Shown here piece by piece: positions 1-54,296 of a stretch of 64,000 nt of DNA. The DNA is from Chiloscyllium plagiosum (lineage: Eukaryota). Below the pieces are notes generated by a model. The model did no database searches. It had not been told where the DNA came from and saw nothing but the letters and a program-made list of their open reading frames with translations. Location of the stretch: the NCBI RefSeq assembly GCF_004010195.1, contig NC_057758.1:4188962-4252961 (forward strand). The letters run 5' to 3'. The stretch's first letter is position 1. Each line of letters begins with the position of its first letter. A program made the translations under genes and the position numbers.

Positions 1-1311
1 CCATATCAACAAAATCAGCGAAGGCCAATCCATGGTCTATCTGTCAGACCAACCAGGTTACTGTTGGTCGGTTTCAATTTCACCAATCCTTGCAGTTGAT
101 TGTGAGCCAGCATCAATGGGTATATTTCCTTACCGAACGCCCCTCCACATCAGTTTCACACAGACTGATTTAATTTTTGCAAAATGCCTGGCAACTGACT
201 GTCAATTTGCATCAATGAATTTATTGTCAACAGAATGCCTTGACGTGTCAGATTCGCATTACCCAGTTTAAGAGCAATAAGCCTGATTTTTAATTTACAA
301 TCTGCATCCATGGTCGCATTGACCACGGGAAAGTACTGACAAATGAGCTTCATAACTCCTCGTTTAAACATAACCAGACTTGACAGTTAACTGTCATTCC
401 ACATCAATAGATTTTTCTTCGACAGGTGCACCAAGACGAATCAGTGACCATGAGTTAACTAATGCCTTATCTCCTCTCATGCAGGATAAACATGATATTC
501 CCACTTCAGTTTATGTTCGTGCGAAATGTCCTGAGGAGTGTAAGGCAAACGTCTTCGATAAAATGTGTTTTTTTTTATTTCAACGAGAATCCTGGTTAGA
601 CCGGGTAGCTGGGTATTACTCGACAATTCCTGTAGCAACCAGAAGTTAATGGAAGAGTCAGGAGAATCGGTGGAGGAAAGTCATGACAGTGACTATTTAG
701 CTTCTAATACCTCAGCTCGTGTTCATGAGAACAAGATCTGTATGAAGGGCGCATTATGGCCAAAATGTATTAGTCACCTTAACTTTGATCAAACCGTCTT
801 CATCGAACCNNNNNNNNNNNNNNNNNNNNNNNNNNNNNNNNNNNNNNNNNNNNNNNNNNNNNNNNNNNNNNNNNNNNNNNNNNNNNNNNNNNNNNNNNNN
901 NNNNNNNNNNNNNNNNNNNNNNNNNNNNNNNNNNNNNNNNNNNNNNNNNNNNNNNNNNNNNNNNNNNNNNNNNNNNNNNNNNNNNNNNNNNNNNNNNNNN
1001 NNNNNNNNNNNNNNNNNNNNNNNNNNNNNNNNNNNNNNNNNNNNNNNNNNNNNNNNNNNNNNNNNNNNNNNNNNNNNNNNNNNNNNNNNNNNNNNNNNNN
1101 NNNNNNNNNNNNNNNNNNNNNNNNNNNNNNNNNNNNNNNNNNNNNNNNNNNNNNNNNNNNNNNNNNNNNNNNNNNNNNNNNNNNNNNNNNNNNNNNNNNN
1201 NNNNNNNNNNNNNNNNNNNNNNNNNNNNNNNNNNNNNNNNNNNNNNNNNNNNNNNNNNNNNNNNNNNNNNNNNNNNNNNNNNNNNNNNNNNNNNNNNNNN
1301 NNNNNNNNNTT

Positions 1312-2184
1312 TTTCGCAGAACATGTGGTCTCTCTGGATCTGTAAGTCGTTACCTGGAGGCAATGGCAGTGGCAGATGTACTAGTCATTGTCCTCTATGT
1401 GATATTGAGACTTATGCCAATTGTTTATAGGGAGCATTTTTATTTCTTCTATTCCCTCCACGTGTGTAATATCCACGCCATCCTGCTTTATGCAGCCACT
1501 GACTGTTCTGTCTGGTTCACCGTCACTTTCACCTTTGATCGATTTGTGGCCATTTGTTGCCAGAAACTGAATCGTAAATATTGCAGTGAGAAAACAGCCT
1601 CTTTGGTTTTGGGAATAGTGACTGCGCTGAGCTGCTTAAAGAACATTGTCTGGTACTTCATGTATGAAAGCACGTATACTCTTCAGAGGGCTCGCTGGTT
1701 TTGTTATATGGAAGCTACCACTGCCATGACATTGCTCTGGACAATAATCGATTTTCTGCATTACATTCTGACCCCATGTGTCCCATTTGTCTTGATTCTG
1801 CTTCTGAATGCTTTAACCGTCAGGCACATTTTAATTGCAAGTGGGGCCCGCAGGCGACTCCAGGCCCACAAAAGGGAGGAGAGTCACACCGATCTAGAAA
1901 TGGAGAATCGAAGAAAATCTGTCATTTTACTATTTGTACTCTCGGCTAATTTTATATTGTTATGGTCAACTTTAATTGTATATTCTCTGTGGGAGCGAAT
2001 GTATTTATTCAGCGATGTACCATTTGGGATACCTGGCCTTGTGCATGAAATAGGTTTCATGCTGCAGCTCATGAGTTGCTGCACAAACACTCTTATTTAT
2101 GCTGTGACACAGTCTATGTTCCGAAATCAGTTGAAACATCTGTTGAAATATCCCGTCACTCTTGTCATAAAATATGTTCGATAA
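1312..2184 (+). CDS. Class A (rhodopsin-like) GPCR, GPR139/GPR142-like family; large second coding exon, 5' end hidden in the N gap
   Basis: Open frame from the gap edge to TAA at 2182-2184: CGLSGSVSRYLEAMAVADVL (ICL1/TM2), SVWFTVTFTFDRFVAICC (TM3, DRF), TPCVPFVLILLLNALTV (TM5), ENRRKSVILLF..FILLW (TM6), SCCTNTLIYAVTQ (TM7) and helix 8 FRNQLK. The N-terminal 81 aa of the ORF-track call (565-809) are an artefact of reading through Ns. Confidence 0.9.
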   Translation, partial: FRRTCGLSGSVSRYLEAMAVADVLVIVLYVILRLMPIVYREHFYFFYSLHVCNIHAILLYAATDCSVWFTVTFTFDRFVAICCQKLNRKYCSEKTASLVLGIVTALSCLKNIVWYFMYESTYTLQRARWFCYMEATTAMTLLWTIIDFLHYILTPCVPFVLILLLNALTVRHILIASGARRRLQAHKREESHTDLEMENRRKSVILLFVLSANFILLWSTLIVYSLWERMYLFSDVPFGIPGLVHEIGFMLQLMSCCTNTLIYAVTQSMFRNQLKHLLKYPVTLVIKYVR

Positions 2185-2966: not shown

Positions 2967-3584
2967 CACTGCTCTATTAGGACATGTGCGAGAGGCCAGA
3001 GATTGCTGCAAAACTGGCGTTTGCGGGGTGCATTTTGCCTCTTACTTGCAGCTCGTTTCACAAGATCAAAAATACACTGAGTTCCCCATTGAAATGCAAC
3101 ATTTTATTTCCATCCACGCTACAGTAATTGTATATAGCATTGATATAATCGATTTGCATATTTCCATAATGGAGACATCCAAAGCAATAAACATCAACGC
3201 AATAAACATCAACAAATGATGAAGGTCTCTACGGACAGTCACAGGTGCAACCATCATCTCCATCATCTGTGTTTGGAGCTTACAATGCATCTGACTCCTT
3301 TAGTTCTCCCCATCTGCATTGGATTATTTACCAATAAAGTAAATTGCTGTTTTTGGAAGACGAACCCATCCAAAATCTGTGCTAATTTGGGAATATCCGG
3401 ATGGAGAGGATATTAATTTTTCAAAATGTTCTAAAATTTTTCAAATGAACATTAATATAATGTTACTGTGGCACAACTGTCAAATTGAGAAGAACCCCTC
3501 ACTCTCTTCATGGTTAAAAGATCAAACAACAATCACTCTCACTTGCAACAGCAGTTTACGACCATTGCTATTTAGTGTCATTGA

Positions 3585-3780
3585 GTCATGGAATGCCGAT
3601 AGCGTGGAAACTGGCCATTTGCCCCAACAAGTCCACACCAATATATCCAAGAGTGTCCCGCCCAGATATATTCCGCTTCCCTAAATTTACTCCTGATTAC
3701 TGCACCGAACCTACACATCCCTGACAGCTGTGGACAACTTAACATGGCGAATTCACCTTACCTGCACATCTTTGGATTGT
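3585..3780 (-). mobile_element. HE1-type SINE 3' fragment
   Basis: Matches the other HE1 copies (aattcacct..acctgcacatctttgga; caacaagtccacacc). Confidence 0.7.
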
Positions 3781-4216
3781 TATAGAGTCTATGAAATAAT
3801 GCAATGCCCTATGTTTTTCTTTAAAGATTCGAAACCGTTTTCTCATGACATGTGAGAGAATGAATTGAGATAAATTATCTCCACGTTTCGATTATGGATT
3901 GCTGGATATGCAATTAGACCATATCTAGCCCTTATATTGTTATCACAACTTGCCTCTGAAGATTTACCCTGTCCTGTCGTGTGATGTTAGCTATTTACCA
4001 TTTCGATGTGCACCATTTGTCAGATTTCTGATCAATTTTTTGCATTGGTAACTTCAGAATCCAAATTATCAACCTTGTGATAGGTGGTGTATGACAAGCT
4101 GTTTGAATACATTGCCCATTTCTGTGCAGGAATTAAGTGCAATTTATTAAAATATTAGCTGAAAACGGTGTTGCTGGAAAAGTGCAGCAGGTCAGGCAGC
4201 ATTCCATGAGCAGGAG

Positions 4217-4252
4217 AATCGACGTTTCGGGCATAAGCCCTTCTTCAGGAAT
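4217..4252 (-). ncRNA. Minimal type I hammerhead ribozyme motif
   Basis: Minus strand reads ATTC CTGAAGA A GGGC-TTAT-GCCC GAAA CG TC GATT: conserved core, 4-bp stem II, GUC cleavage triplet, stem I with one mismatch. Confidence 0.7.
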
Positions 4253-4286
4253 ACCTGAAGAAGGGCTTATGTCCGAAACGTAGATT
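4251..4286 (+). ncRNA. Minimal hammerhead ribozyme motif (slightly diverged)
   Basis: ATAC CTGAAGA A GGGC-TTAT-GTCC GAAA CG TA GATT: core intact, G-U pair in stem II, GUA triplet, weak stem I. Confidence 0.55.
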
Positions 4287-4768
4287 CTCCTGCTCCTTGG
4301 ATGCTGCCTGTCCTGCTGCGCTTTTCCAGCAACACATTTTTCAGCTCTGATCTCCAGCATCTGCAGTCCTCACTTTCTCCTTATTAAAATATTACATTAT
4401 TGTGACTGCACACAATGAAATAGAATCTGTTTGCAAACTCATCCTTGTATGAAAATCTTAAACTGTTATACATAATCTTTATTGAAATTGTGCTAATTGT
4501 CTACATGTCTGTTGATCAGGTTTTGTAAAATTTTCTTCCTTCCTTTCAACACTGAATCATACAGATGTGGTTTGGTGGTGAGAGAGTGGAAGGGATAATC
4601 TGTTCGATCCATCTCACAGACTGAGAGTAGCCAGCGAGATAAAACGTTGCTTAGAGCAACAAAACATAGATTTAGCACATCTATCCGAAAACCATGGAAA
4701 GTTGCTTTGCATTTACCTGCTCATAAAATTAACTGTATGAACAGTGATTTCTGCAAGTTCAGTGGACT

Positions 4769-5422
4769 GAGGGGATATCATGAAGAAAGATATGATGTTG
4801 AACATGCATTTCCTGAATATCTTGAAGGGGAATTACTGTACTGTCGAACTGTTGTCTAACATGAATTACACTGAATACAATAGTCAAACTGTCAAAAACA
4901 CATGCACGAGTCCTATTTAATTTCTCACGCAGGAGGGAATTGAGTGAAATAGTCATCAGAATGAAATCTTGCCCACGGGTACAGAAAACATCAATAATAA
5001 ACTTACCCCACAGCTCAGACAGAATCTCGTATGGAAGGAGTAATTCTCTCAGTTGATGAGATGAATGGAAGTAACATGTTTCATATGATTTGTAGAGGGG
5101 ATATGATGAAGAAAGATATGATGTTGAACATGCATTTCCTGAATATCTTGAAGGGGAATTACTGTACTGTCGAACTGTTGTCTAACATGAATTACACTGA
5201 ATACAATAGTCAAAATGTCAAAAACACATGCACGAGTCCTATTTAATTTCTCACGCAGGAGGGAATTGAGTGAAATCGTCATCAGAATTAAATCTTGCCC
5301 ACGGGTACAGAAAACATCAATAATAAACTTACCCAACAGCTCAGACAGAATCTCGTATGGAAGAAGTAATTCTCTCAGTTGATGAGATGAATGGAAGTAA
5401 CATGTTTCATATGATTTGTAGA
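4769..5422. repeat. Tandem duplication, 2 x ~326 bp, near-identical
   Basis: gaggggatat..atgaagaaagatatgatgttgaac starts at 4769 and again at 5095; both units end in catatgatttgtaga; only a few substitutions. Confidence 0.92.
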
Positions 5423-5679
5423 TATTTTTATTTATATCAGGTTAATTCATGAATTCATACACCTTTTCTTCTGCATGCATGTGATCTGTGCATGCATGGC
5501 CTAATAAATCTTGAGAGATATGACTGATTTTCCACATGTTTACCTTTGAAGATGCCATTTCTAGCAAATCCACATTTATCTACGACTGACATGGAAGAAC
5601 GTGCTTGCTTGGAGACCTGTTAGATAAGTTCAAACAATGCAGTAAATACAGTGATAATATATTTATATTTTTGATCGTC

Positions 5680-10795: not shown

Positions 10796-11689
10796 TTCTT
10801 TTAAGCAAACGTCGATCGATATTCTGGCAGTGATTCAGCTGACCTAACCGCTTAATTTTAAACAAGATAAACAAGATTATCAAATAGTTGTCAAACAAGA
10901 GAACCGAATGCAAAATGCATAAACCAATCTGAAAACCCAACAGAATATCCCAACATAATGAAACTGTTACAAATACTTGCAACTATCACCATAAACAAGC
11001 CTTTGCAAAAAAAAAGAAAATTGAAAGAGTTTTTTTTCTGCACAGATAGGCCAGACAGAGAGAGAATCAGCAGTGACATGCTTCTTTAACTCCAGCAGCT
11101 TCATAACTGGCTGCTTGAAAAAAGAAACAAAATAATGTATAACTGTGTTGGGTGAACCGGCCATTCTGCTTTCATTGGGCAAGCGTATTTTCTTTTCAAA
11201 TTGGATGCATTTTATTTGAGACAGTATCTGTTAGCTGGAAACAAATTGGCCTTAACACCCTTTAAACCTAGAAACCCGTGAACCTGTGTATTTACCATTC
11301 CTCTGAGACGAGACAAGGGCAACATAACCTTGTTAAAAGAGCAGCATCATTACACATGTCTTAGCTCAATGAATTCCGTTATACCGGGTCATCTGCATGC
11401 CAATTTCTTTGGGCAAAAATCCTTTCCCTGTCCAATAAATTACATCCCCCGTTTCCAACCCGAGACCTGCCCCGGACTGTTAACTCTAAACTTTCACTGG
11501 AAGCTGACTGGTTCAATCTGATATGTCGCCTCAAGTTCTCTGTTCCCTCTTCCCTATTCCACCCTATCTCTCTCTGAACTGATTGGATTCCTTAGACTCA
11601 GAACCAACGCTGACGGTTACTAAGATTGTCTTTAACGGTGTTGCTGCTGTTGTCTGGCCTACTGACCAAACATTACAGAAATTAAGCGT

Positions 11690-12590
11690 TAGCTTCTGGT
11701 CACTTTCTGCTATGTCCACCTGGGTCATGACTCCACCATAGAACATCAGACCAGAGTGTGCTCAATGGTCACTAACCATTTTTATTCTTTGATTTCCTGT
11801 CCGCAGCCTCCACGCTCATAGTCTCCCAACCCCGCACAAGCCCGCTTCTGCCTCATTCCTAAAATTCCCAAAAGGTATTCTCCCGGACATCCATGGTATC
11901 TGTCCACTCTTGCCCCGCAGAACTCAATTCAATGTTTTTTCTCCTCTTCTTCGGTCCAGACCAAAGTACATCTGCCATTCCTCTGACATTTTGCTCCAGT
12001 TTCAAAATTTCCAGCTGGCTGCAGCCAGCATGTCTTTCCAATGGGGCGTGCAATGCCTTCACACCTCCACTCCCATTAGGGTGCGCTGAGTGCTCACTGC
12101 ATCTTCTTGAACAAAGGCCCCATCCATCATGGCTCTCCTCTGCCTGGCTCAACTTAGCCTCACACTGAATAACGGCTCTTTTAGCTCCTCTTACTTTCTT
12201 CAGGTCAGAGGGGTGTCCATTGGTTCCTGTATTTTCCAAAATGTAGCTTTTCTCATTGTGGGACACTTGGGACATTCCGTATTCCAGTCGGACTACCGTC
12301 CCTTCCCACAAATCTTTCTCCAGGGTATCGATGACATTATCAGCATTGCTTCACTTTCTCACGCAGAATTATAAAATTTTACCTATTTCACTTTCACTTT
12401 CTAATCTGCTCCCACCATCACCTGGTCCCTTCCCTTCCTCGACATCTCCATTTTTTTTTGCAGATCGGTTGTCCACGAATATCCACTACAAACCTACTGA
12501 CACACACAATTACTTTAAATATATCTCCTCACATTTTGCTTTATATGAAGCCCCTATTCCATTCTCCAAGTTCCTCCATCTCTGTCGCAA
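11690..12590 (+). mobile_element. Penelope-like element, decayed RT fragment
   Basis: Peptides FLQVRGVSIGS, DRLSTNIHYKPTDTHNY and IPFSKFLHLCR; the last matches the RT C-terminal segment of the younger copy at 55.4-56.4 kb. Confidence 0.75.
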
Positions 12591-13385
12591 GGACATAACG
12601 TTGTCAAAGAAGCGACATGGTCACACTGTCTCCATGTATCATTTACTCGCACGCTCCTTTCCATTCCAAATTCCCAACCCATCTTCTGCAGAAACAAAAA
12701 TCATTTTCCTCAATGCCACCAGTCCTGAACAAGTGTCTTTGGACTTGTAATATTAACACTGACTTATTTCCAAATATCCTACCAAACCTGCTCAGACTTT
12801 CCAGTGATTCCCGCTTTTCTTTCAGATTTCCAGCATCGACAGCCCTATTGAACTTTTGCCTGATGTACCTTGTGACTTGCATCAGAACTTTGCAGCGTCG
12901 TTTCTGCTCTGGAGCAGCATCTCTTCTCGTTGTTGCACAATTTTCCACCTTAAATAACAAAGTCGTGTCAGAACAGTACTTTGATCATTCTTTTCAAATT
13001 CACCCATGGTGTGCAACAATGAAACAATGACTTGCTCTTCTTTCGAGTCGATAGACCAGAGTTACTCCTTTGCTTGACTTGAATTTCCTTCACTCTCGAC
13101 ACTTAACTGCCTCATGGTCGATTAAGGACGGACCACAATTACTGACCTAAACAGTGACACCAATCTCACGAATGAGTAAAGAATAAAAGCATTTACATTC
13201 TCTACAACTAACTTATGTAGAGGAAATAACTGACGTGATCTTTATTTTCATCATCATCTTTATGTCTTTAACCCAATTGTATTCTCGCACAAAGCAATGC
13301 CAGTCCATACATGGTGTTTTGGTCTCTCACTTGGTTTTCAGTCCTGCAGCCACCCAGACATATTCTCAATATTAAAGTCACAATG

Positions 13386-13593
13386 AGGTAAAAACAATGA
13401 CTGCACATGCTGGAAACCAGATTCTGGATTAGTGGTGCTGGAAGAGCACAGCAGTTCAGGCAGCATCCAAGGAGCAGCGAAATCGACGTTTCGGGCAAAG
13501 GCCCTTCATCAGGGCTTTTGCCCGAAACGTCGATTTCCCTGCTCCTTAAATGCTGCTTTAACGGCTGTGCTCTTCCAGCACCACTAATCCAGA
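13386..13593 (-). mobile_element. Second palindromic Penelope pLTR-derived mini-insertion with 15-bp target-site duplication
   Basis: Inverted arms centred near 13505; attaaagtcacaatg at 13371-13385 and 13594-13608. Confidence 0.85.
13481..13514 (-). ncRNA. Minimal hammerhead ribozyme motif
   Basis: Minus strand CC CTGATGA A GGGC-CTTT-GCCC GAAA CG TC GATT; the 5' strand of stem I is lost at the inversion junction. Confidence 0.55.
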
Positions 13594-15119
13594 ATTAAAG
13601 TCACAATGTCTACTACTAACTAAAGAGATGTGACCATGGCACTGCTTATCTCAGTGGCGCAGAGTGTTCATAATAATCTTCATTCATGTAAGCTTGTCTC
13701 GTGAACTATAAGATGTCTATTGCACGTTCAGCCAACTTTCCGAGACAGATGAACATCAATTTCATATTCTATCCGGTCCCCATATTTCCACTTAAAGAAA
13801 AATTCCAATCGTTCACCTTCCTGCAAACATTGATCCAGACTGACGTTGCTGCGTCTCTCTGAGTCTGCGACGTGACCTATCCCAATGTTTTGAAGTAATG
13901 TTGTAAGTCCTTCATTTATTATTCTGCCTTCTTTATTCATTCGTGAGATACTTCCTTTCAATACTGATAACGCAACATTTTTTCCTGATTCGACTTTAAT
14001 TGCATTATTTTATTTCCAGAACAACTTTCGACAGCTTTGTTCGAGCAAAGCTGATACAATCAACTGTTCGACTCAAACTTTAACAGTTATCTCACCAAGT
14101 CTCACTGATTTGTCGTTATGTTTCTTGCTGTGTGTGCTGTTTTGACTTTTTACCCTAATTATTGCTAAATATAATAACTTGATTTGTAGCGATATCACGA
14201 TGTTTCGGACCTTTCCGTGGGTGTTATGCATATTATTCCCTCCTCTCTTTGGTGTAATCCATTTTATGAAGAAACCTATTTTCATTCATTGTTATATCTG
14301 CATTTTATGGAAATATGTGAATTTATGTTCTAAAGCTGATAATTTACAGTTATTGTTGGTTTTCTTTAATTGCCAGATATTTAATTTCCCGATATTAATA
14401 CAATTCTTCAATGCTCTGAGAAGTTTTGAACAGGAACGCACCCGATCCTTGTGATCTATATACATTTGTTTTAGAAATGCCATCTTTGAAAATACACTTG
14501 GTCACTAGTTTCAAGTAAATTTTCTTTCCTCTGAGATGGCTTTTCTGATTTTGTTTTCTACGTGTAACATCGCTTTTCAACTTGGTTTTCATGTTTTCAC
14601 CGCCAAACTCTTCTTCAGCATTTCTTTCCAATTTCACAGTTCTCTTAGTGTTTCGTCACTTTTTTTGTCGAGTTCGTCAGCAGGCTGCACATGATTAACT
14701 TCTCCAACCTTCACCCCCACCAAACATCACCACCTCCAACCATATGCACATCAGTATTTTGCTGTTTGACCTTTCATGTGATTCGTTATGCGTTTGCATA
14801 TGACATTGTCTGGCCTGTCTCTGCCTTGGAAAATCGTTGTGGTTGCTTTGACATACTCTGTGTTCCTCTTCTGCCAATGTTGTCTGTTTCAGGGTGGTTT
14901 CCTGGTTTTGTTGCTCAGCGCGCTCGTTCGCATTGCCAATTGGTAGCACACAGCAATATCCTGGCGATCCATTCACTGCTTCGCACAGTGTTCCTGTCTA
15001 ATATCTATCAAAACTATTCTTGTTTGGCCGTTTTGAAAAAGATACTTCTTTCATCTCTTCTGAGCACACAACTTTCACGTCAGTGTGGGCCACACTCACT
15101 CTGAGCTATTGACTTGAGA

Positions 15120-18364: not shown

Positions 18365-19440
18365 TTATTTAGTCTTGGGCCCAGCATTTATGATCGATTC
18401 ATAATTACTCCTTGATAAGGCAGTAGTGAGCTGTCTAATTGAGTCGCTGAATTAATGGGGAATCAGTAGATCTATAGCGCCGGTACAGAGGGAATTCCGG
18501 GACATTGACCAAGTGACACTAAAGGAATGCTAAAAAAATGTCCGAGTTATTTTGGAAAGTATCTTGGAACGTACGGTTTTAATCTTCCAATGTATCTGCT
18601 GTCGTTCTCCTTGCAGGAAGTTGTGCGAAGATGATACCGAAGGAGCATTGCAGAATTTCTGCATGGCACATTGTAAGTAGTACACAGAAAGTGGTGGATA
18701 CTCGTGAATGTGGACCAGAGGCAATCCGTCTATTTTATCGACATAGCTGTTATCAGAGGTGCACGGGCTTTTGTTCTGCATCAATTTCTCCTTTAATTTG
18801 TCTTGGAACAAAAGCCCTGTTCCAAAGAAACTTGTAGTTATGTTGTCAATATTGCAGGCTACTTTATCCCGAATGATGCCGAGGTTCTAGAGTTGTATTA
18901 GAGCTGCATCCATCCAGGCACCTGTGGAGTATTCCATTCCACTTCTGACTTGTGCATATTCGATGATGCTTCATGAACAGCTCATGTTAGAAACGTCGAT
19001 TCCCCTGCTCCTCACATGCGGTCTGACGAGTTGTGTTTTTCCAGCACCACACTCTCGTCTTTGATCTCCAACATCTGCAGTTCTCACTTTCTCCCAGGCT
19101 TTGGAGGACGTCAGGTTAGTTGCACACTGCAGGATTGCTAGTCTCTGACGTGCTCTTGGATGCATTGAATGAATTTGGGAACTTCTGTTCATTTTCTGGT
19201 GAACAGTAACTCCTTAGACGCTCGTTGCAAGGGAATTCAATGATGGTAATTTGATTGATCGTCAAGGGGGGATTGTTAGATTCCATCCCAATAGCAATAT
19301 CCAGGATATTAATGGTTATTGAATTTGATAATCTTAACACCAAGTACTGTTGGTTACATTGTCTCTCAAAGGTAACCCTGATTACATTGATTCAGTGATG
19401 AGGATGCAATTGAACGGCAAGTAGCAAGAATGTGATTCCT
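18365..19440 (-). mobile_element. Decayed L2/CR1-clade LINE 3' portion, interrupted by a degenerate Penelope pLTR fragment (~18965-19097, +)
   Basis: cccagcattta..ccttga..aggcagtagtgagctg 3' motif; minus-strand peptide ARQRLAILQCATNL; the insert has gaaacgtcgattcccctgctcc..catctgcagttctcactttctcc. Confidence 0.55.
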
Positions 19441-30599: not shown

Positions 30600-31030
30600 T
30601 CATCCAGGGAGCCAGATTATGATATGCGCACCTGGGTTCGAATCCCGCCCTGGCAGTTGGTGGAATTGGAAATCAAACATTTAAAGAAATATGGACTTTA
30701 GATTCTAATGATGAACATAAGCCCATTGTCGATTGTCGGAAAAAAAAACAAGTAGTTCGCGAATGTCCTTCAGGGAAGGAAAGTGTCATCCTAAATCAAA
30801 CATTTAAAGAAATATGGACTTTAGATTCTAATGATGAACATAAGCCCATTGTCGATTGTCGGAAAAAAAACAAGTAGTTCGCGAATGTCCTTCAGGGAAG
30901 GAAAGTGTCATCCTTATGTGGCCTGGCGTACATGTGGCTCCAGACAGATAGAAATGAAGTTGACACCTCACTGGCGTCGAGATGGGCAATAAATGATTTC
31001 TAACCAGCGATGTCCTCATTCAGTGAATGC
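30600..31030 (+). mobile_element. DeuSINE/SacSINE1-like element with an internal 123-bp tandem duplication (30670-30914)
   Basis: B-box gggttcgaatccc, Deu-like aatgtccttcagggaaggaaa..tggcct..acatgtggctccaga, 3' gggcaataaatg; duplicated unit begins aaatcaaacatttaaag at 30670 and 30793. Confidence 0.7.
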
Positions 31031-33200: not shown

Positions 33201-35939
33201 CGACCAGGACCATGAGATGCAAATTCAATATTCGCAATAAGAAGCAAAGCTAACGTAAAATATTTGGACAAGCGAGGAATTTCAATTGGTGGATTTCTGA
33301 GTGGAATCTTTTATCTCTTCTGAAATTAGTGAAACACGATGATCTGATGGAATCAATAGACTTTATCTTCAATGGAACGACATTAGGCCATTCGAACTCT
33401 CGAGTTTGTCCAAACACTCAAGACATCCATCAACGGTTTGTTGATACATCTATATGCCTGCCGGGCCCGTGGCCTTGCTGAATAGAAAACAAATTATGCT
33501 TCAGATTTAGAATGGACAAATGGATTACCATCGATCACTTATTTGAGTACGAATGCTCCAAGCCTTCACTTTTCTTTGTATATCGAAGTGCTTGCGATCG
33601 TCTCTCCTGAATGAGCTGACCATAATCCTTATATTATAATTTGGGTTTCACTGTCTGAGCCGAGCATTGATTGCCCATCTCTCGTTGCCCTTGAGAAGGT
33701 GGTGCTGAGCTGACTTCTTGAATTACCGTCGTTCACATGCTGGAAGTAGACTCACGCTGTCCTTACCGAGGGATTTCCAGGATTTTGTCCCAGCACATCT
33801 GTGAAATAAATTTCAAAATGTGGAAATAGTTTATATTTATCAACACAGTCTTTCATTATCAATATCCTGAAGACCTCAATTAGATCACTCCTTAAACATT
33901 TGGATTCTTCAGAATAACGTTTTAATTTATCTCAAATCTCCGAAGAACGATAAACCCGAGGTTCAGGTATCATCCTTGTAAACCTGCAGCGATGTCCCTG
34001 CAGGACCAGAATACTCTCTGTAATAAGTGCTTCTGTTTCAGATCTGCACACAGTACTGTCCGTGAGCTACAGATTTGGAAATCAGAGTCCTTTTTAATCC
34101 TTCCTTGTTCAATGTTACGAGGTTTTCTGCCTCTATCAGCCTTAAGCGTTCCAGAGTTATATATTCCTAATATTCACTGTGTGATTGAAAGTCCATATAC
34201 CCTCCAAATCTTATTTCAATAAACCTATCCACCCCATTGACTGATGCATCTGTGAGGTGGAATAGTTTCTTAACCTCCACACTATGTATTCCTCTCACCA
34301 CTGACACATCTCAATCTTAATCTTTCCAAACAAGTCCAGTCTGTCCAATCTCTCTTCACGACTGAAACTCTTCAGCTCAGGCACGATATTGGTTAATCGC
34401 ATATCATCCCCAACCCACCCCCATCCATTACAATCACATTCTTCCTATCTTGAGTATTCCATAATACTTTTCCTCTGTCCTGAGCAACATTTTGTACAGT
34501 TTCAGCTTTCTCAGCGGTACCACGACTGTTTCAAATCTTCCGTTAAGAGGTGAAGGGCTGTCTGTGTCTGAGATAGAGCCCTGAGCAGCTGAGCAAGAGT
34601 TGTGAAAACATTGCTGCTTTTACATGTAGACCTAGTTCTGGTACAGCATGCGAGTAGCTGAGGGATTGACCATACTCCTGACCATACCTAAGGACTCTCA
34701 GCCCACTGGCCAACTTGCTTACCACAAGGTTCAAAAGGCATTAAGCCTGGTAGGAGCGACTATTTATGAGGATTAGATTCAACCGCACTCATTGCAATTG
34801 ACAAGACTCAAAGACAATATCATTGAAATATGCAATATTTGTTAGGGACGCGAAAGGTGAGGTGCAGAAATGTATTTTCCCCAGAGGTAGTTTTGAGGAC
34901 CAGGGAGATTCGTCTCATAATAATGGGTCACCGATTGAGATGGAATCTCCTGTCTCAAAGGATAGTGAACCTTTGGAATTCTTTACTACAGATGGCTGTG
35001 GAGGTTGGGTCTTTCGGTATATTTAAGGCTGTAACAAATTAAGTTTAATCAGGATGGGGAATCGAGAGTTATGGGGAAAATGCAGGGAAGTCGATTCAGT
35101 ATGATCTGAACAGTCGCGATCTCATGGAGTCCCAGTGCAGTATCGATGAGCGGTCTGTGGCGAGAAGATCTTATTTGGATTAGTGAGACTCCAAAAAACA
35201 CAATACCCCAAGTATGGTCTCGCTAAAGCCCTGTATAACTTCAATGAGCTATCCCAACTCCTGAACTCCATTCCCCTTGCAAATAAGGCCAACATATCAT
35301 TTGACTTGCATTAACGGAGGCAGCGAGTGAGCTGTTGATTCCAAGCAACTTGAGAAACATGGTCAGACAGGATAGTGACTGGTTCTGTTTCAGAGGAAAT
35401 TTCGAACAAAATAACATGCGCACGACAAAAATGTTTAAAGATTTTGTTATGGACCAGACCGACCACGCCATCAAAAGATTTCAAGGAAGTACTCAGACCC
35501 TAACTTTGTTAATTGTCCGAAGCAGGTTCAGAGCAGCTATTCCTGAGTGATGCAGCTGGCCCCACCAGTTAGTTTGCAGAAAATCAGAATTAATTTGCAA
35601 GATTAGCGAATGGAACACAAACAACAGAGACCAGAATATACACAAACGTAACCGATCTGAAAGCGGAACAGATTATCCCAACTTAATCATGTTGCAAATT
35701 ACTGCAACAACCTCCATAAACACGACCTTGGCACAAATTATAAAATCAAACATAGGGTCCACAGGGGAGAGACAGCAGAGAGATTCAGCATGGAACACCT
35801 TCTTCCATCGCTTATTTGACGAGCAGCCTCAAAACTGACTGACTACTTGCTCTGATCAGCCAGACTGCTCAATCTGAAACCAAATCAAGGGTTAAAGGAG
35901 AAACATTGTCCGACATGGGAAACACAATCAGCACATCCT

Positions 35940-36890
35940 AGACGAGGGGAGAGTTGAGAAAGTCATGCCAGCACTGTATTAATGACTTGGAGCAAAGAAC
36001 TGAACATCTAGTCACCAAAATTGTTCACAACATTACGATTGGTGGAATGGCAAGTTGCGAGCAAAATCTAAACAATTAATTGAAATATATTAATTGTTCA
36101 AGTCAGTGGACACAAAATTGACAAGTATCTTATAACATTGAAAGACGTGAAGATATTTGTTTTGGAAGGGGGAATTTTAAATAAAGAAAACTGCAACACA
36201 ATGGGACTTGGGAGAAAATGTTCTCTAAACACAAAAAGCTGGTAGGGAGGGGCAACAGACATTCACAAAGGCTAATGGAATGTTGATCGTTATTTCAAGA
36301 TTTTCAAGTATCATATCAGGGAGGTCTGACTGCAACTGATCAAGGTTCTGGGGAGACAATGTCTGGAATACTGTGAACAGTTTTTGTTCCCTCATTGAAG
36401 GAAAAATCTCATTTCATTGGAGGCAGTTTAGGGAAGGTACACTAGGATGATTTCAGGTTTGAAGGAAGTATCTCATAAGCAAAGCCTAAGTCTGTCGGCA
36501 TCTATTCACTGAATATTTCGAGAATGAGCGTTGTTTTCATTTGGAGCATACATGATTCTGAAGCGTGATTGCAAGGGTAAATGCTGATAGGAGGTTTTCC
36601 TTCATCGTGGAATCCAGGACCAGAGAATCAGAATAAGTAAGCAGCAATTTATACAGAGATGAGGAGGAATTTCTTCTCTCGGAAGGTTGTGAATTTTTGG
36701 AACTCTGTGTCACAGAGAGCTATGGTGGCCAGACGTTTTGTGTAAACGTAAGATAGGTAGACTTTATCAATCGGGGATTCACGGATTACAGACGAAGTCA
36801 GGAAAGTGGATGAGACGAATTTTGGAACAGAGACGATCCTCTCTTACTGGCAGAGCAGGTTTGAGGGGCAGACCTGTCCACTTCTCGTCG
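35940..36890 (+). mobile_element. Old CR1 LINE 3' portion (duplicated at ~58020-58970)
   Basis: gagatgaggaggaatttcttctctc..ggttgtgaat..ttggaactct 3' CR1 motif and decayed RT C-terminus. Confidence 0.7.
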
Positions 36891-37609
36891 TATCTGATTT
36901 TAAATAACGTTTTTCTCAACCATTCATTCCAAAATGATATTTTCCCCGTTCAGACTTCAACAAGTTTAATGTTTAAAAACCTGTAATCATTTCGGAGAAC
37001 CTGAACAGACGCGGGGGACAGGGTGGGTGTCGGGATGGTAGGCTCGGGGTAAGGTGTGAATTACGAAGGCAAAAAGAAACCTTATCACCACTCTCTAATC
37101 ACGAAGGAGATCCAGTGTAACCATTATCATGTAATCAGACGGCCTATTCAGTCATATTTGGTCACTCAACAATTCTCAGTTGCTGGAATGTCTGTGTCAA
37201 AACAATCACTACTCTGTTGCACGGCTGATACTTGGATGCTACGAAGTGTGTAACATGTGCACTTTCAACAGTAAAACAGCATCTGAAGTGATAAATATTG
37301 ACAGTGTCAGATAACTAACATATGGACACTCGACAGCATGCAGATTGTGCACTGCCTTCAGTAAGACAATATGTACAGTGTTGGAGAACTGAGGTTTGGA
37401 CATTCAGCAGCATGCATCATATGCATTATCTGCAATCATTCAATGTCTTCAGAGTGAGAGACTGATAATTGAACATTCAGCTCTGTGCAGCCTGTACATG
37501 GGAAACAGGATGGCAGAATTAGATGCTGGATCTTTTACACTCTTCAACGTGGGACAATGCAGATTTTGTTGAGTGACCCGATCTTTAATCCAGTAGATCT
37601 GGGTTAATA

Positions 37610-39135
37610 GAGCCATGGAATCCTGCAGCACGGAGACAGTGCCATTGCCTTGGCTGGTCCACGACATTCAAAATGTTAATCACCGTTAACTCCATTTCTC
37701 TTAGCCCATATCCTTCTAAACCTTTCCTATCCACGTATTGGTTAAAATGTATTTTAAATATTGTTAATGTACCTGCCCCAGCCACTTCTGCTGTCAGTTC
37801 ATTCCACATACATTCCATTTCACATGCGTACCACCCTCTGTGCAAAACGTTACCCCTCAGTTTTCTTTTTATTGTTTCCGCTTTAAACATAAGTTGATGC
37901 AATGTCGTCCTCAATTATCCAACGGTCGAAAAAGACTGAGCGCATTCACCCTATCCATTCCTCTCTAGATCTGACACACTTCTAAAAAAGTCTGCCTCGC
38001 CCCCATCTCCTATACACTGAAGAAAAATATCCTAGCTTGTACAATCTCTCCCTGTAACCAGACCATTGAGACCAAGCAACATTCTTCTCAATTTATTTTG
38101 CAATCTTTACAGTTTAATAACATCCTTCCTACAGCAAGGTGACCAATACTGAACACAATACTCCAACGTCCTGTACAAATGACACATGACATCCCAACTT
38201 CTATACTCAATGACTTGACTGATGAAGGCCAGTGTACAGTAAGCCTTCTTCACTGCCCTTTCTACCTGATACTCCACTTTCAGGGAACCCTGGATCTAAA
38301 ATCCAAAGTCCATCTGTTCCACGACAGTCCTTAATGCCCTACCTTTTACTATGAACCCCTACCTTGATGTGACTTCCCAACAAATGCAAGACCTCACGTT
38401 TATCTATAGCAAACTTCATTTGACAAATTTCAGACCACTTCCCCAGCTGATCAAGTCCTGCTGCCATTTCAGTCACCTTCTTCACTCTCCATGGTGCCGC
38501 CTGTATTAATGTCACCTGCAAATCTGCTCTTCAGGCCATGTCCAGTCTGATCCAAAACAGTGATACAGATAACAAACAACAGTCTGCCCTGCACCGATCA
38601 TTGAGCCACTCCACGAGTCATAGGCCTCCAGTCAGACAAGAAACTGTCCACAATACCCTCTGTTCTCTACCATCAAGCCAACTGTGTATCCAATTTGCCA
38701 GCCCTTCTGGATTCCATACGAACTGACCTTCCAGAGCAGCCTACCATATGCACCCTTAACAAAGAACATCCTGAAATCCATATAAGCCGCATCTACGGCC
38801 CCGCTCTCAATAAACTTTCTGGTCGCTTCATCAATGAAGTCTAACAAATTTGTTAAGCATGACATCCCAAGCAAATAAAAAAGTCCATGCTGACTGTTTC
38901 TAATTACCCCTATATATCTAAATGCTGGATTATCTTTTCTCAGGATCTGTTCACGTAACCTACCTACCACAGATTGATCTTCCTTTCCCAGGCTTTAATT
39001 TACGACCCTTCTTGAATAAGGGCACGCAATTCGCTGCTCTGCGGTCTTCTGGGACGTCACCCGTGGCTAATGAAAATGCAAAAATATCAGCCATTGACCT
39101 CGCGATGACTTCTCTGGCATTTGTCAAGCTTCTAA
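37610..39135 (-). mobile_element. CR1 LINE RT-3' fragment (duplicated at ~59745-61280)
   Basis: Peptides IRNSQHG..SCLTNLLDF..AAYMDFRMFFVK and WNELTAEVAGAGTLTIFK. Confidence 0.85.
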
Positions 39136-39139
39136 TTTG

Positions 39140-41360
39140 GATAGGCCAAGTTGGATTTTTTATCGGCTAACGAAACAGGCCAGGAGTTAGTTTTGAAGGT
39201 GGCTAAGCAATTTGGTGATAGTGACCACAATTCGGGTGTGTTTCCTATCGTGATGGAAAGGGAGATGTATATACTGCATAGTGTGGGACATAGCTGGGGA
39301 AAAGGCAATTATGATGCAATTAGGCAAGATTTAGTGAAACAAACGGAAGATAATGGGCACCATTGAAAAGTGGAGCTTGATTAAGGAACAGGTACTGAAT
39401 GTTCTTGATAAGTAAGTCCCTGTCAGGCAGGGAGGAAAGGGTTCAGCGAGGGCGTCGTTGTTAACTAAAGCAGTTGAATCCGTTATCAAGGAAGAAAGAG
39501 GCTTAAAGAAAGATGGCGCGTAAAGGCTCAGTGATGGCGCTAAAAAATTATAAGTTAGCCAGGATCGACTTAAAGAGAGAGCTAAGCAGTGACATGAGAG
39601 GACATGAGAATCTTTGGCAGGTCAGATCAAGAAAACCTGTTATGCTTTGTATAGCTATGTCAGGGATAAAAGAATGACAAGGTTTATATAAGGGGCAGTC
39701 AAGAGTAGCCCTTGGAAGGTGCGTGTGGAGGTTGAGGAGATAGGGCAGGCGTGAAAAGAATACTTCGCGTCCGTATTTACACTGGAAATAGACAATGTTG
39801 GCAAGGAGAATACTGAGAGACGAGATATTAAATGAGGCAGGATTGAGGTTCAGAAGGGGGAGGTGGTAGCAATTCTGTAAGTTGTGAAAAGAAATATTTC
39901 CCTTGGACCGAATGGGATTTGATCACGTATTCTCTGGAGGGTAAGGGAGGGGATTGCAGGACATTTGGCTTTGATATTTCTGTCGTCATTGACTACAGGA
40001 ATAGTGGCAGAAGACTGGAGCATTGACCACAGGAATAGTGGCAGAAGACTGGAGGAGAGCAAATATTGTCCCCTGGTTCAAGAACGGAAGTAGAGATAAC
40101 CCTGGACATTACCTGTCTTCAATTGCGAGAAAAGTATTGGAAAGGATTACGATAGAAATGATTTGAAACCATCTGGCAAGGAACAATTTGATTTGGGTTT
40201 GTCAACAAGGTTTTGTAAAGGGTACGTCGTGCCTCAAAAACCTTATTGAGTTGTTTCAGAAGGTAACCAAACAGGTGGATTCGGGTATAGTTATAATGCA
40301 GTGTATATAATTTCAGTAAGGCGATTGATAAGGTTCTCCTTGATAAGCTATTGCACAACATATGGAGGCAGAGGATTGAGTGTGTTTTACCAGTTTGGAT
40401 CAGAGATTGGCTCACTGAAAGAAGACAGAAGGGGCTTTCTTTGATGGGATATGAACATTTACTAGCGGTATACCGCAAAGATCTGTTTAGGGACCGGTGC
40501 TGTTTGTCATTTGTATTCAAGGAACTGGATGAGAGCGTAGAAAGATGGGTTAATGAAGTTGGAGGTGACACTAAAGTCAGTGGAGTTGTGGTCAGTGCCA
40601 ACAGGATGTTGCAGGTTCCAGACCGACAATGACAAGCTGCAGAACTAGGCTGACAGATGGTAAATAGAGGCTAAGGCGGAGAAGCTGCATGGTAAGATTC
40701 TGGGGAGTGTGGATGAGCACAGAGATTTCAGTGATCGATGCCACACAGGTTGATAGGGATACAAAGATATTGTATAGTGTGTTCGCTTTTATAGGTGAGG
40801 GATTGAGTTTCGATGCAATCAGATCATGTTGCTGTACGAGTCACTGGTGCAGCTTCACTTGGAGTACTGCATGCAGTTCTGGTTGCTGCATGAGAGAAAT
40901 GCTGTGTGAGATTTGGAAAGGGCGCAGGGGACATTTACCAGGATGTTGCCTGATATGGAAAGAAGATCTGAAGAGGAAAGGCTATGGTCCTTGAGGCTGC
41001 TTTCGTTAGAGAGAATGCAGAGAGGTCATGTAATTGAGGCATAAAAGATGGTCAGAGGATGGATAGGTGGATAGTGAGAGTCCCTTTCCTCGAATGATGA
41101 TGGCTAGCACGGGAGACATAACTTACAAATTGAGAGATGATAGACGGAGGACAGATGTGAGATGTAGGCTTTTATAGTCAGAGAGTAGTAAAAGCCTGGA
41201 ACGCCCTCCCTCAAACAGTGGTCGACTAACAAACGTTAAGGGCATTTAACTGTCATTGGATAAATAATGGATGAAAATGGAATAATGACAGTTAGATGAG
41301 CTTCAGATTGGTTTCACAGAACGGCGCAAAGATGGAGTGCTGAAGAGCTGCACTGTGTTC
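39140..41360 (+). mobile_element. CR1 LINE, endonuclease C-terminus through 3' end, head-to-head with the preceding element
   Basis: KQFGDSDHNS (endonuclease SDH motif), WIRDWLTERRQK, ELDESVERWVNEVGGDTKV; includes a 34-bp tandem duplication at 39987-40054. Confidence 0.85.
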
Positions 41361-41599
41361 TTGGATATATCTGTTCAGAACTAGGAGAGCATTCCATTTA
41401 TTACCTTCTAATACATTCAAAATAACCTCTACTGTGATGTGGGCTTTCCCCAAGATATCACAAAAACATCCCCAAGTTCCTAAGTCTTGATATCTTATTC
41501 CATGACAAACGCAGAGGATAAATGATCATGGAGGAACTTGCCCATTTCCTGCTCATCTCCATGTGCATTATTACTTTGTTACTACAGGGGACATCTCTT

Positions 41600-42110: not shown

Positions 42111-43439
42111 CCATCATCTCCCACGTCACCTCATGAAACCAAGGAAGCAGAAAACCAACTTTAAAATGGCGCCAATGCTTTCTTTGAAATGAACAATGGC
42201 TGCTCGCAGTTCGGTCAATTGTTGACGGGGGTAGCAGCTAGAGTCTGTCTTTAACCCCGTTGAAATTCTACTGAGAATGATGCGTTTGAATCATTGAAAG
42301 AGCTGTGTGATATTGTCCGTTGTCCTTTGTTCTGCTGGATCTGCTGTAACTTTCCTTTCTGTTCACATATCGACTTACAGGGATATATTGTATGACCGAG
42401 TGAGCTACCAGCTCTCGTTGTTATGGCATGTTCCAGTTAACCAAACTTGAAAGCGTTTTCCACATTCCTCAAATCAGCCTTTTCGCAGTTCGCATCAGTG
42501 CATCTCGACCAGTGACTGAATCTCACCCAACCTCATACACTGCCGAGAAGCAGACCTCGAGATTTCCCTCCAGTACTCTGGCACCAACATACAAACCTCT
42601 CGACCAGACCAGAAAATGCATCACTGCTGATCTTGGGAGTTTACTGTGTGAAAACCGCAACTATTATCTCCCTGAATAAAACATTGGCATCACTAATTTG
42701 CTATTACACGTCTATCTAACATTCTAAGACACCTTGGGATTATCTCCCGCTCGCGCTATCCACTGTATTTCACGAAATTGCTCTACTTTTGTTTCGCAGT
42801 TGTTTTCCTTGTCTCATCCTTGTCCTGTTATATCTATTAAATCTGCGAACAATGCTTCAACTTTCCACCTTAGTGTTATTGCTATTGTGGCAAAGTTGAG
42901 GTTGGGTCACTGGTTTGCCGATTTTACTATCCGAATTATGTCAACAATGGAGATTCAGTTCGGGCATCAGCTGAGATAAAGATCATTAGGAATAAGACCA
43001 AACATCACTTATCCCACACTATCTATAATACAGAACTGAAGATGTATCTCTGTTTGATTGAGCATTTGGGTATGTTTGTCTGCGGTGTCTGTGCGAACAT
43101 TCATGTGTTACTGTGCATTGGTGACTTCGTGTGTGTATATGTCAGTGCATGTGGCCGGTGCTACATTTGAGTCTACACTTGTGCATGTTACAGTGTGAGT
43201 CATGAATGAAATGTCTCCCATGTGCATCATGGATTAAATCCGTGTTTTGTTTTTCACAGTTATTAACTACAGGAGACCCTGCGTTATCAATTGAGGACAT
43301 TCCATCTTCCAAATAGATTATACTGCAGCAGAAAATCAGCAGAGGATGAGAACTGTCCAGTTCTTGGTTTTTAGATTTTTGATGATGGTGCAGAGACCAT
43401 GAAATGTGGCGTTGGGAACGCATAGAAGGTCAGGCAACA

Positions 43440-43855
43440 CCTAAGGACTAGCAGGGTTGACGTTTTGGGCAGGACACTTCAACAATTCTGGGGAGTGGAG
43501 AGGCGGACTGAGAAATGAATACCAGGTTTAGTTCTCGGGTAAAAGGAGGTTGGATGACGATAGATGCACACAGGTAGGAGATGATTGTGCTAGGTCCGTC
43601 TGAAATGAGGAACGGACAGGTGGGAAGGAATATGTTAAGGTAGGGCAGGTCAATAGGATAGTGTCGAGTCAAAGGGTTGTATCTGTGATGGGAGTGACGA
43701 TTGGGAAACTAGTGAAGTCCGTGTTGATGCCATGTGCTTGTAGTTCCTCAAGGTGGAAAATGACATGTGCTTCCCCCAGTTTGTGGGTGGCCTTGATTAG
43801 GCGGTGGAGGAGACTCAGATTGGGCACATCATCGGGGGAGGTGAAATGGTTGGAC
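43440..43855 (-). mobile_element. Old Penelope-like fragment (GIY-YIG C-terminus and 3' region)
   Basis: HFTSP..LSLLH..ATHKLGEAHVIFHLEELQAHGINTDF parallels HFNSPSH..LGLLH..RRLEEERLIFRLG..PQGMNSDF at 55.5 kb. Confidence 0.75.
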
Positions 43856-45555
43856 ACCTTCAGTCTCTATAGCCTGGGCCCATCGAGATTGTGCTCATCT
43901 CCATGAAACCCAACTCACTCTTTTTGAAACGTCAAAACAGTTGATCACTGCATTGCTAACATCCTGTCATATTTGTCTAATTTCAGATTGTGACGATTGT
44001 GAACCATGTTGCCATCGGTGGGCCCAACGGTCAGAAATGGCAGAGACATGGTCATTACTGTCAGCTCCATACCAGCCAGCTTCATAGATTCACTGTTGAG
44101 ATAAAATACAAAATGCACCGTTACCATCTCTCTGAAGTATGAGTAGAGGGATAATAGACAATACGTTATAAACGCATGTTCACTTCCACCTAGAAGGACA
44201 AGGGTGGTAGACACAAAGGAGCATTTCAAATTGTACTCCAAGCCACTCACCATCGTGACTTGGAAATATATCAGTTATTCCTTAAATATCGCCCAGTTCA
44301 GATCCTAGAATTTATACCTCTGCAGTTGATTATGGGTCAGTCTATAGCACACGGACTGCAAGAAGGAGCTCATGTTCCCAACCCCCAACAACCGCATAAC
44401 CTCTTCTCTAAATTTGTCTGACAGTGAAAACATGGTGAAATAAAATCAGGAGAAAAGGGACAGTCGGAGTTATGATATGGTGAAGAAATTCGATTGTCAC
44501 CNNNNNNNNNNNNNNNNNNNNNNNNNNNNNNNNNNNNNNNNNNNNNNNNNNNNNNNNNNNNNNNNNNNNNNNNNNNNNNNNNNNNNNNNNNNNNNNNNNN
44601 NNNNNNNNNNNNNNNNNNNNNNNNNNNNNNNNNNNNNNNNNNNNNNNNNNNNNNNNNNNNNNNNNNNNNNNNNNNNNNNNNNNNNNNNNNNNNNNNNNNN
44701 NNNNNNNNNNNNNNNNNNNNNNNNNNNNNNNNNNNNNNNNNNNNNNNNNNNNNNNNNNNNNNNNNNNNNNNNNNNNNNNNNNNNNNNNNNNNNNNNNNNN
44801 NNNNNNNNNNNNNNNNNNNNNNNNNNNNNNNNNNNNNNNNNNNNNNNNNNNNNNNNNNNNNNNNNNNNNNNNNNNNNNNNNNNNNNNNNNNNNNNNNNNN
44901 NNNNNNNNNNNNNNNNNNNNNNNNNNNNNNNNNNNNNNNNNNNNNNNNNNNNNNNNNNNNNNNNNNNNNNNNNNNNNNNNNNNNNNNNNNNNNNNNNNNN
45001 NACACCCAACCAGTCACATGCCTCCAGACAGACAAGCATCCTTCCACTATTATCTTTTTTTCTTCTTTTTTAGGTTGAACAGGATATCTGACATTTCTGT
45101 TTTTTAACAGTCCACCTTAACTTTTTTCTAATAACCACACATACTACCGCCCAACTGCATGAGTGCTTATTTTGCCCCAGCAGCGAAGTTGTGTGTGTGT
45201 CTGTGCAGGTGTGTGACACAGTGAAAGACACAAGGTGTACAAAGCATTATTAAATTTCGACCACAAGAAGAAATTAAACACCTAAGTGGCCAACGACAAG
45301 CAGTGGCCTTCACATCAAAGGGCAATCCTGTGTGATCAGACAGTCAAGGGGAGGGAAGGGATTGGCGGGGAAAATAATATACTCCACTCCCTGCGGCACC
45401 CACTATTCCCTGAACAGCTCAAGGGTGTTGGTGGACACTGCGTGATCCTTCTCCAGACACCCGGGCTCTAACATAAACGTGGAAAGAGTGGCAGCCAGCC
45501 GGCTCTAACGACCTTCTCCATGGCCTGCTGCCTGGACCTGGTTATGATCAGTTTG

Positions 45556-45646
45556 CTGAAACTTTATTGCTGGAACAGCACAGCAGGTCAGGCAGCATCT
45601 AGGGAACAGAAGATTCGACGTTTCGGGCACATGCCCTTCTTCAGGA
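45556..45646 (-). mobile_element. 91-bp Penelope pLTR-derived insertion with 12-bp target-site duplication
   Basis: atgatcagtttg at 45544-45555 and 45647-45658 flanks a sequence homologous to one arm of the 4158-4380 palindrome. Confidence 0.85.
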
Positions 45647-45648
45647 AT
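45613..45648 (-). ncRNA. Minimal type I hammerhead ribozyme motif, best-preserved copy
   Basis: ATTC CTGAAGA A GGGCA-TG-TGCCC GAAA CG TC GAAT: perfect 4-bp stem I (ATTC/GAAT), stem II, conserved core, GUC triplet. Confidence 0.75.
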
Positions 45649-46039
45649 GATCAGTTTGGCCAGGCCGAGCAGCAGACCCACGAGGAGGTCCTCTGATCTA
45701 CCCTAAATTCTCTGTATCGATTTTCCGAAGATCAGAAGCGTGGGAGTGAACTGTAATTAAAATCAGAGCAAAAGGTTTTATTTAGAAATCACAAAGGGAG
45801 TGCAAGAACCCACACTCAATATAATTCTTCCAATATTACGCTCTGCTTCCTATCATTAATCCAATGTATGTCCAATTTGCTAGCTCCTTCTAGACTCCAA
45901 ATCGATCTAATCTTCCAGAGCACCCTACTACACTTATGAAAGGCCGAACTGAAATCCATATAGGCTGCATCGATCACACTTCCATTGTCAATATTCCAGG
46001 TCAGTTCATCAAAGAACTCTAAATGCTCCTCTGAAATAC

Positions 46040-54089: not shown

Positions 54090-54296
54090 AAAAGTGGTAG
54101 TGCGGCACTGGAAAATCACAACCGATCAGGCAGCAACCGAGGACCAGAAGAATCAGGCATAGGACCTACATCAATAAGGGCTTATGCCCGGAACGTCAAT
54201 TATCTTGCTTCTTGCATGTTGCCTGACCTTCTGTGCTTTTGCAGCAACACAATCTCGACTCTGATCTTCACTATATGCAGTCCTCACCTTTTTCTG
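54090..54296 (+). mobile_element. Degenerate palindromic Penelope pLTR-derived insertion
   Basis: ctggaaaatcacaaccgatcaggcagc ... aagggcttatgcccggaacgtc ... ttgcctgaccttctgtgcttttgcagc ... gcagtcctcacc; hammerhead core mutated. Confidence 0.65.

Follow-up and report, generated by a model that had tools for sequence, protein, structure and literature searches.

The 223 bp insert at 4158–4380 of the window (the whole 64 kb stretch of DNA that was analysed) is very probably a 5′-truncated, dead-on-arrival copy of a Penelope-like retrotransposon that encodes an endonuclease, probably one of the Neptune type, and the two hammerhead cores that it carries on opposite strands are, as part of the same explanation, in all likelihood passengers of the terminal repeat.

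Structure of the insert

The insert lies between two copies of an exact 14 bp direct repeat composed only of A and T (4144–4157 and 4381–4394), which is its target-site duplication. Around the boundaries, no other exact repeat of at least 8 bp was found, and a comparable 14-mer was seen in 2 of 20,000 random position pairs when the 64 kb window was used as a chance control. The inverted arms (4157–4249 and 4254–4346) are 92–93 nt long and 90 % complementary, and the 34 nt at 4347–4380 are unpaired and present on the right side only, making the palindrome asymmetric. No tandem unit was found in 3600–5000, and the insertion is head-to-head and single. The order is duplication, inverted piece of the Penelope pseudo-LTR (pLTR), direct pLTR piece, 34 nt tail and duplication, as follows:

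4144..4157, no strand: left copy of the target-site duplication, 14 bp, A/T only, exact match to 4381–4394
4158..4252, minus: left arm, an inverted tailless piece of the pLTR, with its outer end at the pLTR/tail boundary
4221..4248, minus: left-arm minimal hammerhead core with C3 at 4248 and a GUC triplet, cleavage predicted after 4221
4249..4254, no strand: inversion junction, where the arms overlap on a self-complementary AT (4251–4252)
4251..4346, plus: right arm, a direct pLTR piece, 5′-truncated just upstream of the hammerhead
4255..4282, plus: right-arm minimal hammerhead core with C3 at 4255 and a GUA triplet, cleavage predicted after 4282
4347..4380, plus: one-sided 34 nt ‘tail’, the 3′ end of the family, typical of Penelope-like insertions
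4381..4394, no strand: right copy of the target-site duplication, exact match to the left copy

The original prediction, made from this sequence without database searches, had described a 223 bp insert with a perfect 14 bp duplication, inverted arms of about 92 nt (93 nt by our measure) and a minimal hammerhead on each strand at the axis, and all of these were borne out, the cores starting at 4255 (plus) and 4248 (minus), 6 nt apart. Its description of the whole as a palindrome holds for the arms and the duplication but had left out the one-sided extension.

Both cores consist of CUGA-N-GA, an extra A, a 4 bp stem II, GAAA, an ACGU palindrome and UH, and the core features of a minimal type I hammerhead (a G10.1–C11.1 pair, an extra base after position 9 and palindromic positions 15.2–16.2) are found in both arms. 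Minimal hammerheads of metazoan Penelope-like elements are mostly solo motifs from truncated elements, and opposite-strand pairs 100–700 bp apart have already been reported (Cervera and de la Peña 2014, PMC4209133). The shark cores resemble those described there in lacking stem III, in their short stem I, in the palindromic 15.2–16.2 positions, in the extra base between 9 and 10.1 and in the G10.1–C11.1 pair; set against them, the shark insert has a 4 bp stem II and a weak stem I, and its opposite-strand cores are only 6 nt apart. In the minus arm, stem I amounts to 3 pairs around a U-U mismatch and in the plus arm to 6 pairs that require a bulge, and the shark copies that could be aligned for stem I came to 7 rows. 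The left-arm core agrees with the family majority, and the right-arm core has two private changes, one at 4272 that gives a G-U pair in stem II and one at 4282, which is position 17. A scan with a hammerhead model had been proposed as a check on the cores, and the Rfam covariance models gave no hammerhead among the 18 matches at E≤10 over 3000–5500, all of which were hairpin (miRNA) or chance snoRNA matches below the gathering score. Differences between the arms fall at 2 of 28 core positions and 8 of 66 positions outside the core (P=0.72), a comparison of low power in which selection on the core was not detected.

Relationship to Penelope-like elements

Penelope-like insertions often comprise an inverted 5′-truncated copy beside the terminal repeat and a tail of 30–40 bp at one end only (PMC8557442, PMC3846280), and a 34 bp repeat has been described for Drosophila Penelope (PMC2377424). 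The one-sided 34 nt tail is the diagnostic part of the insert. The layout as a whole is one already published for Penelope-like elements (PMC8557442, PMC3846280, PMC4209133). Like the complex insertions of endonuclease-positive Penelope elements (Arkhipova et al. 2013, PMC3846280; Craig et al. 2021, PMC8557442), it includes a head-to-head inverted repeat, a target duplication, a tail at one end (34 nt here), a short overlap at the junction and an AT-rich site, but unlike them the shark copy is a terminal repeat alone with no ORF between, in agreement with the coding-free insertion that had been claimed. A dedicated paper on the shark family was not found in the literature searched; shark examples may be present in supplementary material.

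Two fragments of Penelope-type coding sequence are present elsewhere in the window:

55500–56377, minus: fragment of a Penelope-like ORF, containing one frameshift and one stop and covering the RT thumb, a Zn-finger-like linker motif and GIY-YIG
11583–12588, plus: second, more decayed Penelope-type RT fragment, 32–55 % identity to P0002 by tblastn

The first of these is separate from the insert, with no physical link to it, and breaks off within 3′ non-coding sequence, short of any terminal repeat; a full-length element of the exact subfamily of the insert was not seen. Though a Pfam scan of this fragment returned no family, its homologues carry RVT_1 and GIY-YIG, and the best of them are from Chiloscyllium, Rhincodon and Stegostoma (55–73 % identity), which suggests a host similar to a carpet shark. 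A CX2-5CxxC linker motif precedes GIY-YIG in the window fragment, in P0001 and in P0003, and is common to Neptune and Nematis elements. In the Stegostoma RT/GIY-YIG protein P0004, the 3′ region is read through and the last 14 residues match a translated hammerhead, with 10 of 14 agreeing with the 13.4 kb copy described below (E=0.004 in a 16-protein set). When the arm-plus-tail peptide was compared with longer proteins, none of 36 candidates matched at E≤10, which is weak evidence. The link between the subfamily of the insert and a Neptune ORF is indirect and runs through related repeats, namely that of P0004 and the metagenome motifs, and the Penelope origin originally proposed is supported by these two together with the anatomy, the metagenome motifs having Penelope-type ORFs upstream.

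A further comparison is with PAc, a Poseidon element of Anolis (Frangieh et al. 2024, PMC11167929), which shares the pLTR hammerhead, AT-rich targets, a tail bounded by two RT start sites and copies that keep an uncut hammerhead. PAc belongs to a different clade, the window ORF fragment and P0004 showing the Neptune/Nematis linker Zn-finger-like motif.

Related copies in the window

Five further matches to the element were found within the 64 kb window, bringing the palindromes to three in all:

13371..13608, minus: palindromic sibling of another subfamily (~75 % identity), 15 bp duplication, 208 bp insert
18980..19094, plus: decayed direct sibling with tail
43402–43471, minus: weak match (70 %) to the element, possibly an older family, pyrimidine-rich upstream
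45544..45658, minus: solo sibling, 12 bp duplication, starting just upstream of the hammerhead
54108..54290, plus: older decayed palindromic sibling with tail, in which a duplication was looked for and not found

The copy at 13371–13608 has a perfect 15 bp duplication, a tailless inverted arm and a 35 nt tail. Its arm/tail boundary is identical to that of 4158–4380, and its junction is different and cuts into one core. The solo copy at 45544–45658 is without both tail and inverted arm. The 5′ ends of the window copies cluster near the hammerhead.

Abundance, junctions and age

Contigs of three related organisms were aligned to the element region at 85 % likeness. The element recruited 104,940, 91,691 and 68,093 contigs, respectively, nearly all of the contigs falling on the element, and in organism X1 the summed depth reached millions, compared with about 45 on the flanks, a figure that is not a copy number. 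The family is very abundant. Between 1,124 and 3,301 contigs per run gave matches ending at 4380–4382 with unlike, AT-rich flanks, and hence the end of the tail is the 3′ end of the family. At the other end of the direct piece, truncation at the ribozyme cut site was considered and is not supported, the summed depth over the core being about the same as that just downstream.

Joints of the skip type, passing from the inverted to the direct arm, included 12 different junctions among the 15 listed of 771, and 1–3 shared letters were present at 8 of these 12, short sides leaving single joints uncertain. In all three organisms, some contigs read across the junction in an identical or closely similar register. 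Family contigs run on past 4252 in the left arm into more upstream element sequence, and position 4253 at the inversion junction departs from the family and is absent from 20–45 contigs per run. The near-identical registers and the contigs lacking 4253 could represent either recurrent or propagated identical palindromes. The original prediction had termed the insert a ‘mini-retroelement’, as a unit spreading as a palindrome, and this is not supported, as junctions vary between copies.

An empty orthologous site in a related shark had also been suggested as a check, and none was seen among the 15 listed of the 771 joints. In organism A, the match continues across the left boundary over 3933–4188 with 7 differences, in organism B it does so over 4039–4199 with 13 differences, and in organism C the match enters the arm for only 25 nt, below the threshold. 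The insertion site is common to a relative that is approximately 8 % diverged. The arms of the insert differ at 10 of 94 positions, the changes being about evenly divided between them relative to the family majority, and the flanks diverge from those of organisms B and C by 8–9.5 %. As the divergence of the arms is close to that of the flanks, the insertion appears to have occurred shortly before the B and C lineages split and to have decayed since.

Metagenome families

The exact shark-type motif had no matches in metagenome contigs, and a looser motif retrieved at least 120 loci (L001–L120) belonging to other AT-rich families. Among the matches listed, 34 of 129 have a Penelope-type ORF upstream on the same strand, and 28 of these ORFs end 50–130 nt away. 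The core CUGAWGAAGGG...CCCGAAACGUC is found letter for letter both in the shark family and in several unrelated Penelope families rich in AT. The strands of stem I covary in the AT-rich families that share the shark core. At least 3 stem I pairs were formed in 19 of 38 distinct flank pairs, compared with 5.7 in shuffles (maximum 13 in 2,000), counts that come from related rather than independent families with a core fixed by the search pattern.

An inverted arm was present at 22 of the 120 loci listed, and 20 inverted loci were retained after L054 and L118 had been dropped as repeats of L016 and L094. Eight of the 20 have an 11–15 bp duplication flush with one arm and an extension of 30–58 nt on the other, and L037 is a near-exact analogue of the shark insert with a 14 bp duplication. 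The centre of the palindrome lies within −20 to +15 of the core at 11 of the 20, and the junctions often fall on short self-complementary words. A sharp 5′ truncation site was not found in the metagenome families, in which 33 of 87 uncensored copies end 40 nt or less from the core with a smooth fall-off that is confounded by subfamily divergence, by the intact core that the search demanded and by short contigs.

Origin of the inverted arm

The origin of the inverted arm and tail of Penelope-like insertions has been named as unresolved (PMC8557442), and the available text of the PAc account (PMC11167929) does not offer an explanation of inverted arms. On balance, we favour a scheme in which the two target nicks both serve as primers, each with its own start site. 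The RT-endonuclease would cut the two strands of an AT-rich target at positions 14 nt from each other, copying would be primed by one 3′ end at the distal start site (the tail end) and by the second 3′ end at the proximal one (the pLTR end), both cDNAs would stop just after copying the hammerhead, and the two would then be joined via the 2 nt self-complementary overlap. Such a scheme resembles the twin priming of LINE-1. With the purified protein of the Anolis element, AT-rich DNA was cleaved and extended on both strands, and reverse transcription began at two sites flanking the tail; ribozyme cleavage was not needed, and a dimer was predicted (PMC11167929). We infer the twin-priming step for the shark element by carrying it over from this Poseidon element, which belongs to another family. 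A search of openly accessible literature found nothing, by title or abstract, on twin priming in Penelope elements.

A wider form of this proposal is put forward more tentatively, as a possibility that we hold somewhat below even. Stubs of this kind would record priming from both nicks at the tail-bounding start sites, with cDNAs that tend to terminate at the leading edge of the hammerhead rather than at the cut site, either because this is where the template RNA starts or because a ribonucleoprotein blocks further copying, and this bias would be common to the shark and to unrelated animal families.

The same identity would be retained if the inversion arose instead by fold-back self-priming of a single cDNA or from an antisense template, the second arm being copied from the first, as has been proposed for the Penelope elements of rotifers (PMC3846280). 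The two arms have in common some departures from the majority sequence of the family (C at 4319, and the arm end), pointing to one template or one subfamily, and the frequent self-complementary short words at junctions would suit a fold-back. However, fold-back alone would account neither for an inverted arm that stops at the pLTR/tail boundary in each of the two intact palindromes of the window nor for junctions at which either arm may be the longer (the 13.4 kb copy and L094), and we consider it rather unlikely.

A different identity, that of a non-autonomous, retrozyme- or MITE-like hairpin element that spreads as a complete palindrome, is improbable. It would account for three palindromes in 64 kb, for the similar junction register across contigs of all three organisms and for the centring of 11 of the 20 listed inverted metagenome loci within −20 to +15 of the core, but not for junctions that differ between copies or for the coexistence of a solo copy and a tailed direct copy, and retrozymes are head-to-tail repeats (10.64898/2026.07.22.740005). 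The non-LTR retrozymes of that report (Li et al. 2026) are also short, non-coding and hammerhead-bearing and come from Penelope pLTRs, though they are head-to-tail with same-sense ribozymes, whereas the shark insert is head-to-head and single. Two named candidates of this kind were examined and set aside: a non-LTR retrozyme, the insert being head-to-head and single with no same-sense tandem hammerheads, and a MITE or other class II element, as the 34 nt tail parts the right arm from the duplication and the junctions are variable. A 14 bp duplication with a one-sided tail is in general ill-suited to a DNA-transposon MITE.

Predicted RNA folding and genomic context

If the Penelope stub is transcribed, its RNA would be a 92 bp hairpin that bars both ribozymes. 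The hairpin of the inverted arms has a predicted energy of −165.5 kcal/mol (z=−22.5), with none of 200 shuffles as good, and the hairpin potential originally claimed is supported. The accompanying claim that read-through RNA could adopt either the hairpin or the ribozyme fold is not supported. Each transcript includes only one core in the sense orientation, whichever the direction, and the antisense arm is made first both ways. The predicted probability of stem II is approximately 0 in the full-length RNA and in all 4 prefixes per strand, in both directions, and forcing the hammerhead fold is predicted to cost 52.0 and 51.2 kcal/mol for the two directions; in the isolated arms the predicted stem II probability is 0.29 (plus) and 0.90–0.99 (minus). 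Minimal hammerheads do not cleave as monomers and are weakly active as same-sense dimers (PMC4209133; PMC6765202), a same-sense partner being required (PMC4209133). With the antisense arm made first, a gap of ~52 kcal/mol and no same-sense dimer partner, the predicted state is off rather than switchable, and the RNA would be a generic dsRNA substrate and not a switch. Palindromic repeats in the frog and Penelope copies in a lizard are heavily A-to-I edited (PMC5625713).

The insert had been placed ~2 kb downstream of an intact GPCR gene, between two convergent genes. The distance is correct, an open GPCR frame at 562–2184 (plus) ending ~2 kb upstream of the insert, and 1312–2181 matches Pfam 7tm_1, but 500 N at 810–1309 hide part of the frame, which can be called intact only provisionally. 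The convergent partner, at ~8556–7732 (minus), is what is left of a GPCR gene and contains stops and frameshifts. There are three AATAAA motifs between the GPCR stop and the insert, and seven A(A/T)TAAA motifs on the path from the convergent remnant.

These frames belong to a cluster of rhodopsin-family GPCR sequences, at 562–2184 (plus), 8556–7732 (minus), 44494–44411 (minus) and 54790–54579 (minus), made up of one open frame into which a run of 500 N falls and several remnants that contain stops or frameshifts. The window contains four N runs (810–1309, 44502–45001, 49274–50130 and 62069–62568, of 500, 500, 857 and 500 nt), two of which are inside or beside GPCR frames. A large duplication of ~5.6 kb (34312–39923 and 56373–62068, 92–95 % identity) is adjoined by a 1.4 kb block duplicated in inverted orientation (40186–41598 and 64000–62569), and near-perfect tandem duplications at 4769–5422 (328 bp, 98 %) and 30670–30914 (123 bp, 99 %) are either recent duplications or assembly overlaps.

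Exaptation of the insert as an RNA switch or regulator 3′ of the GPCR gene, alternating between a hairpin (editing, small RNA) and self-cleavage, is very improbable, as the agreement of both cores with the motif rules, the survival of an old insertion in at least one diverged relative and the A-to-I editing of palindromic repeats and lizard Penelope copies in other animals (PMC5625713) have to be set against the ~52 kcal/mol gap, the precedence of the antisense arm in both directions, the missing same-sense partner, a core in which slower change than outside it was not seen, three AATAAA motifs ahead of the insert and the broken state of the convergent gene.

Significance

The insert is real but ordinary, another Penelope terminal-repeat stub of a known type, and as a single locus, one old copy among very many, it carries little weight. 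It is a clean minimal example of the anatomy of Penelope insertions and hence suits the study of how the inverted arm and the tail arise. If the wider priming proposal is correct, the genome would have been seeded with very many hairpins of ~90 bp, each with an antisense arm that silences its ribozymes. At the level of the family, hairpins in such numbers could together supply sharks with a large amount of dsRNA for editing or small-RNA pathways.
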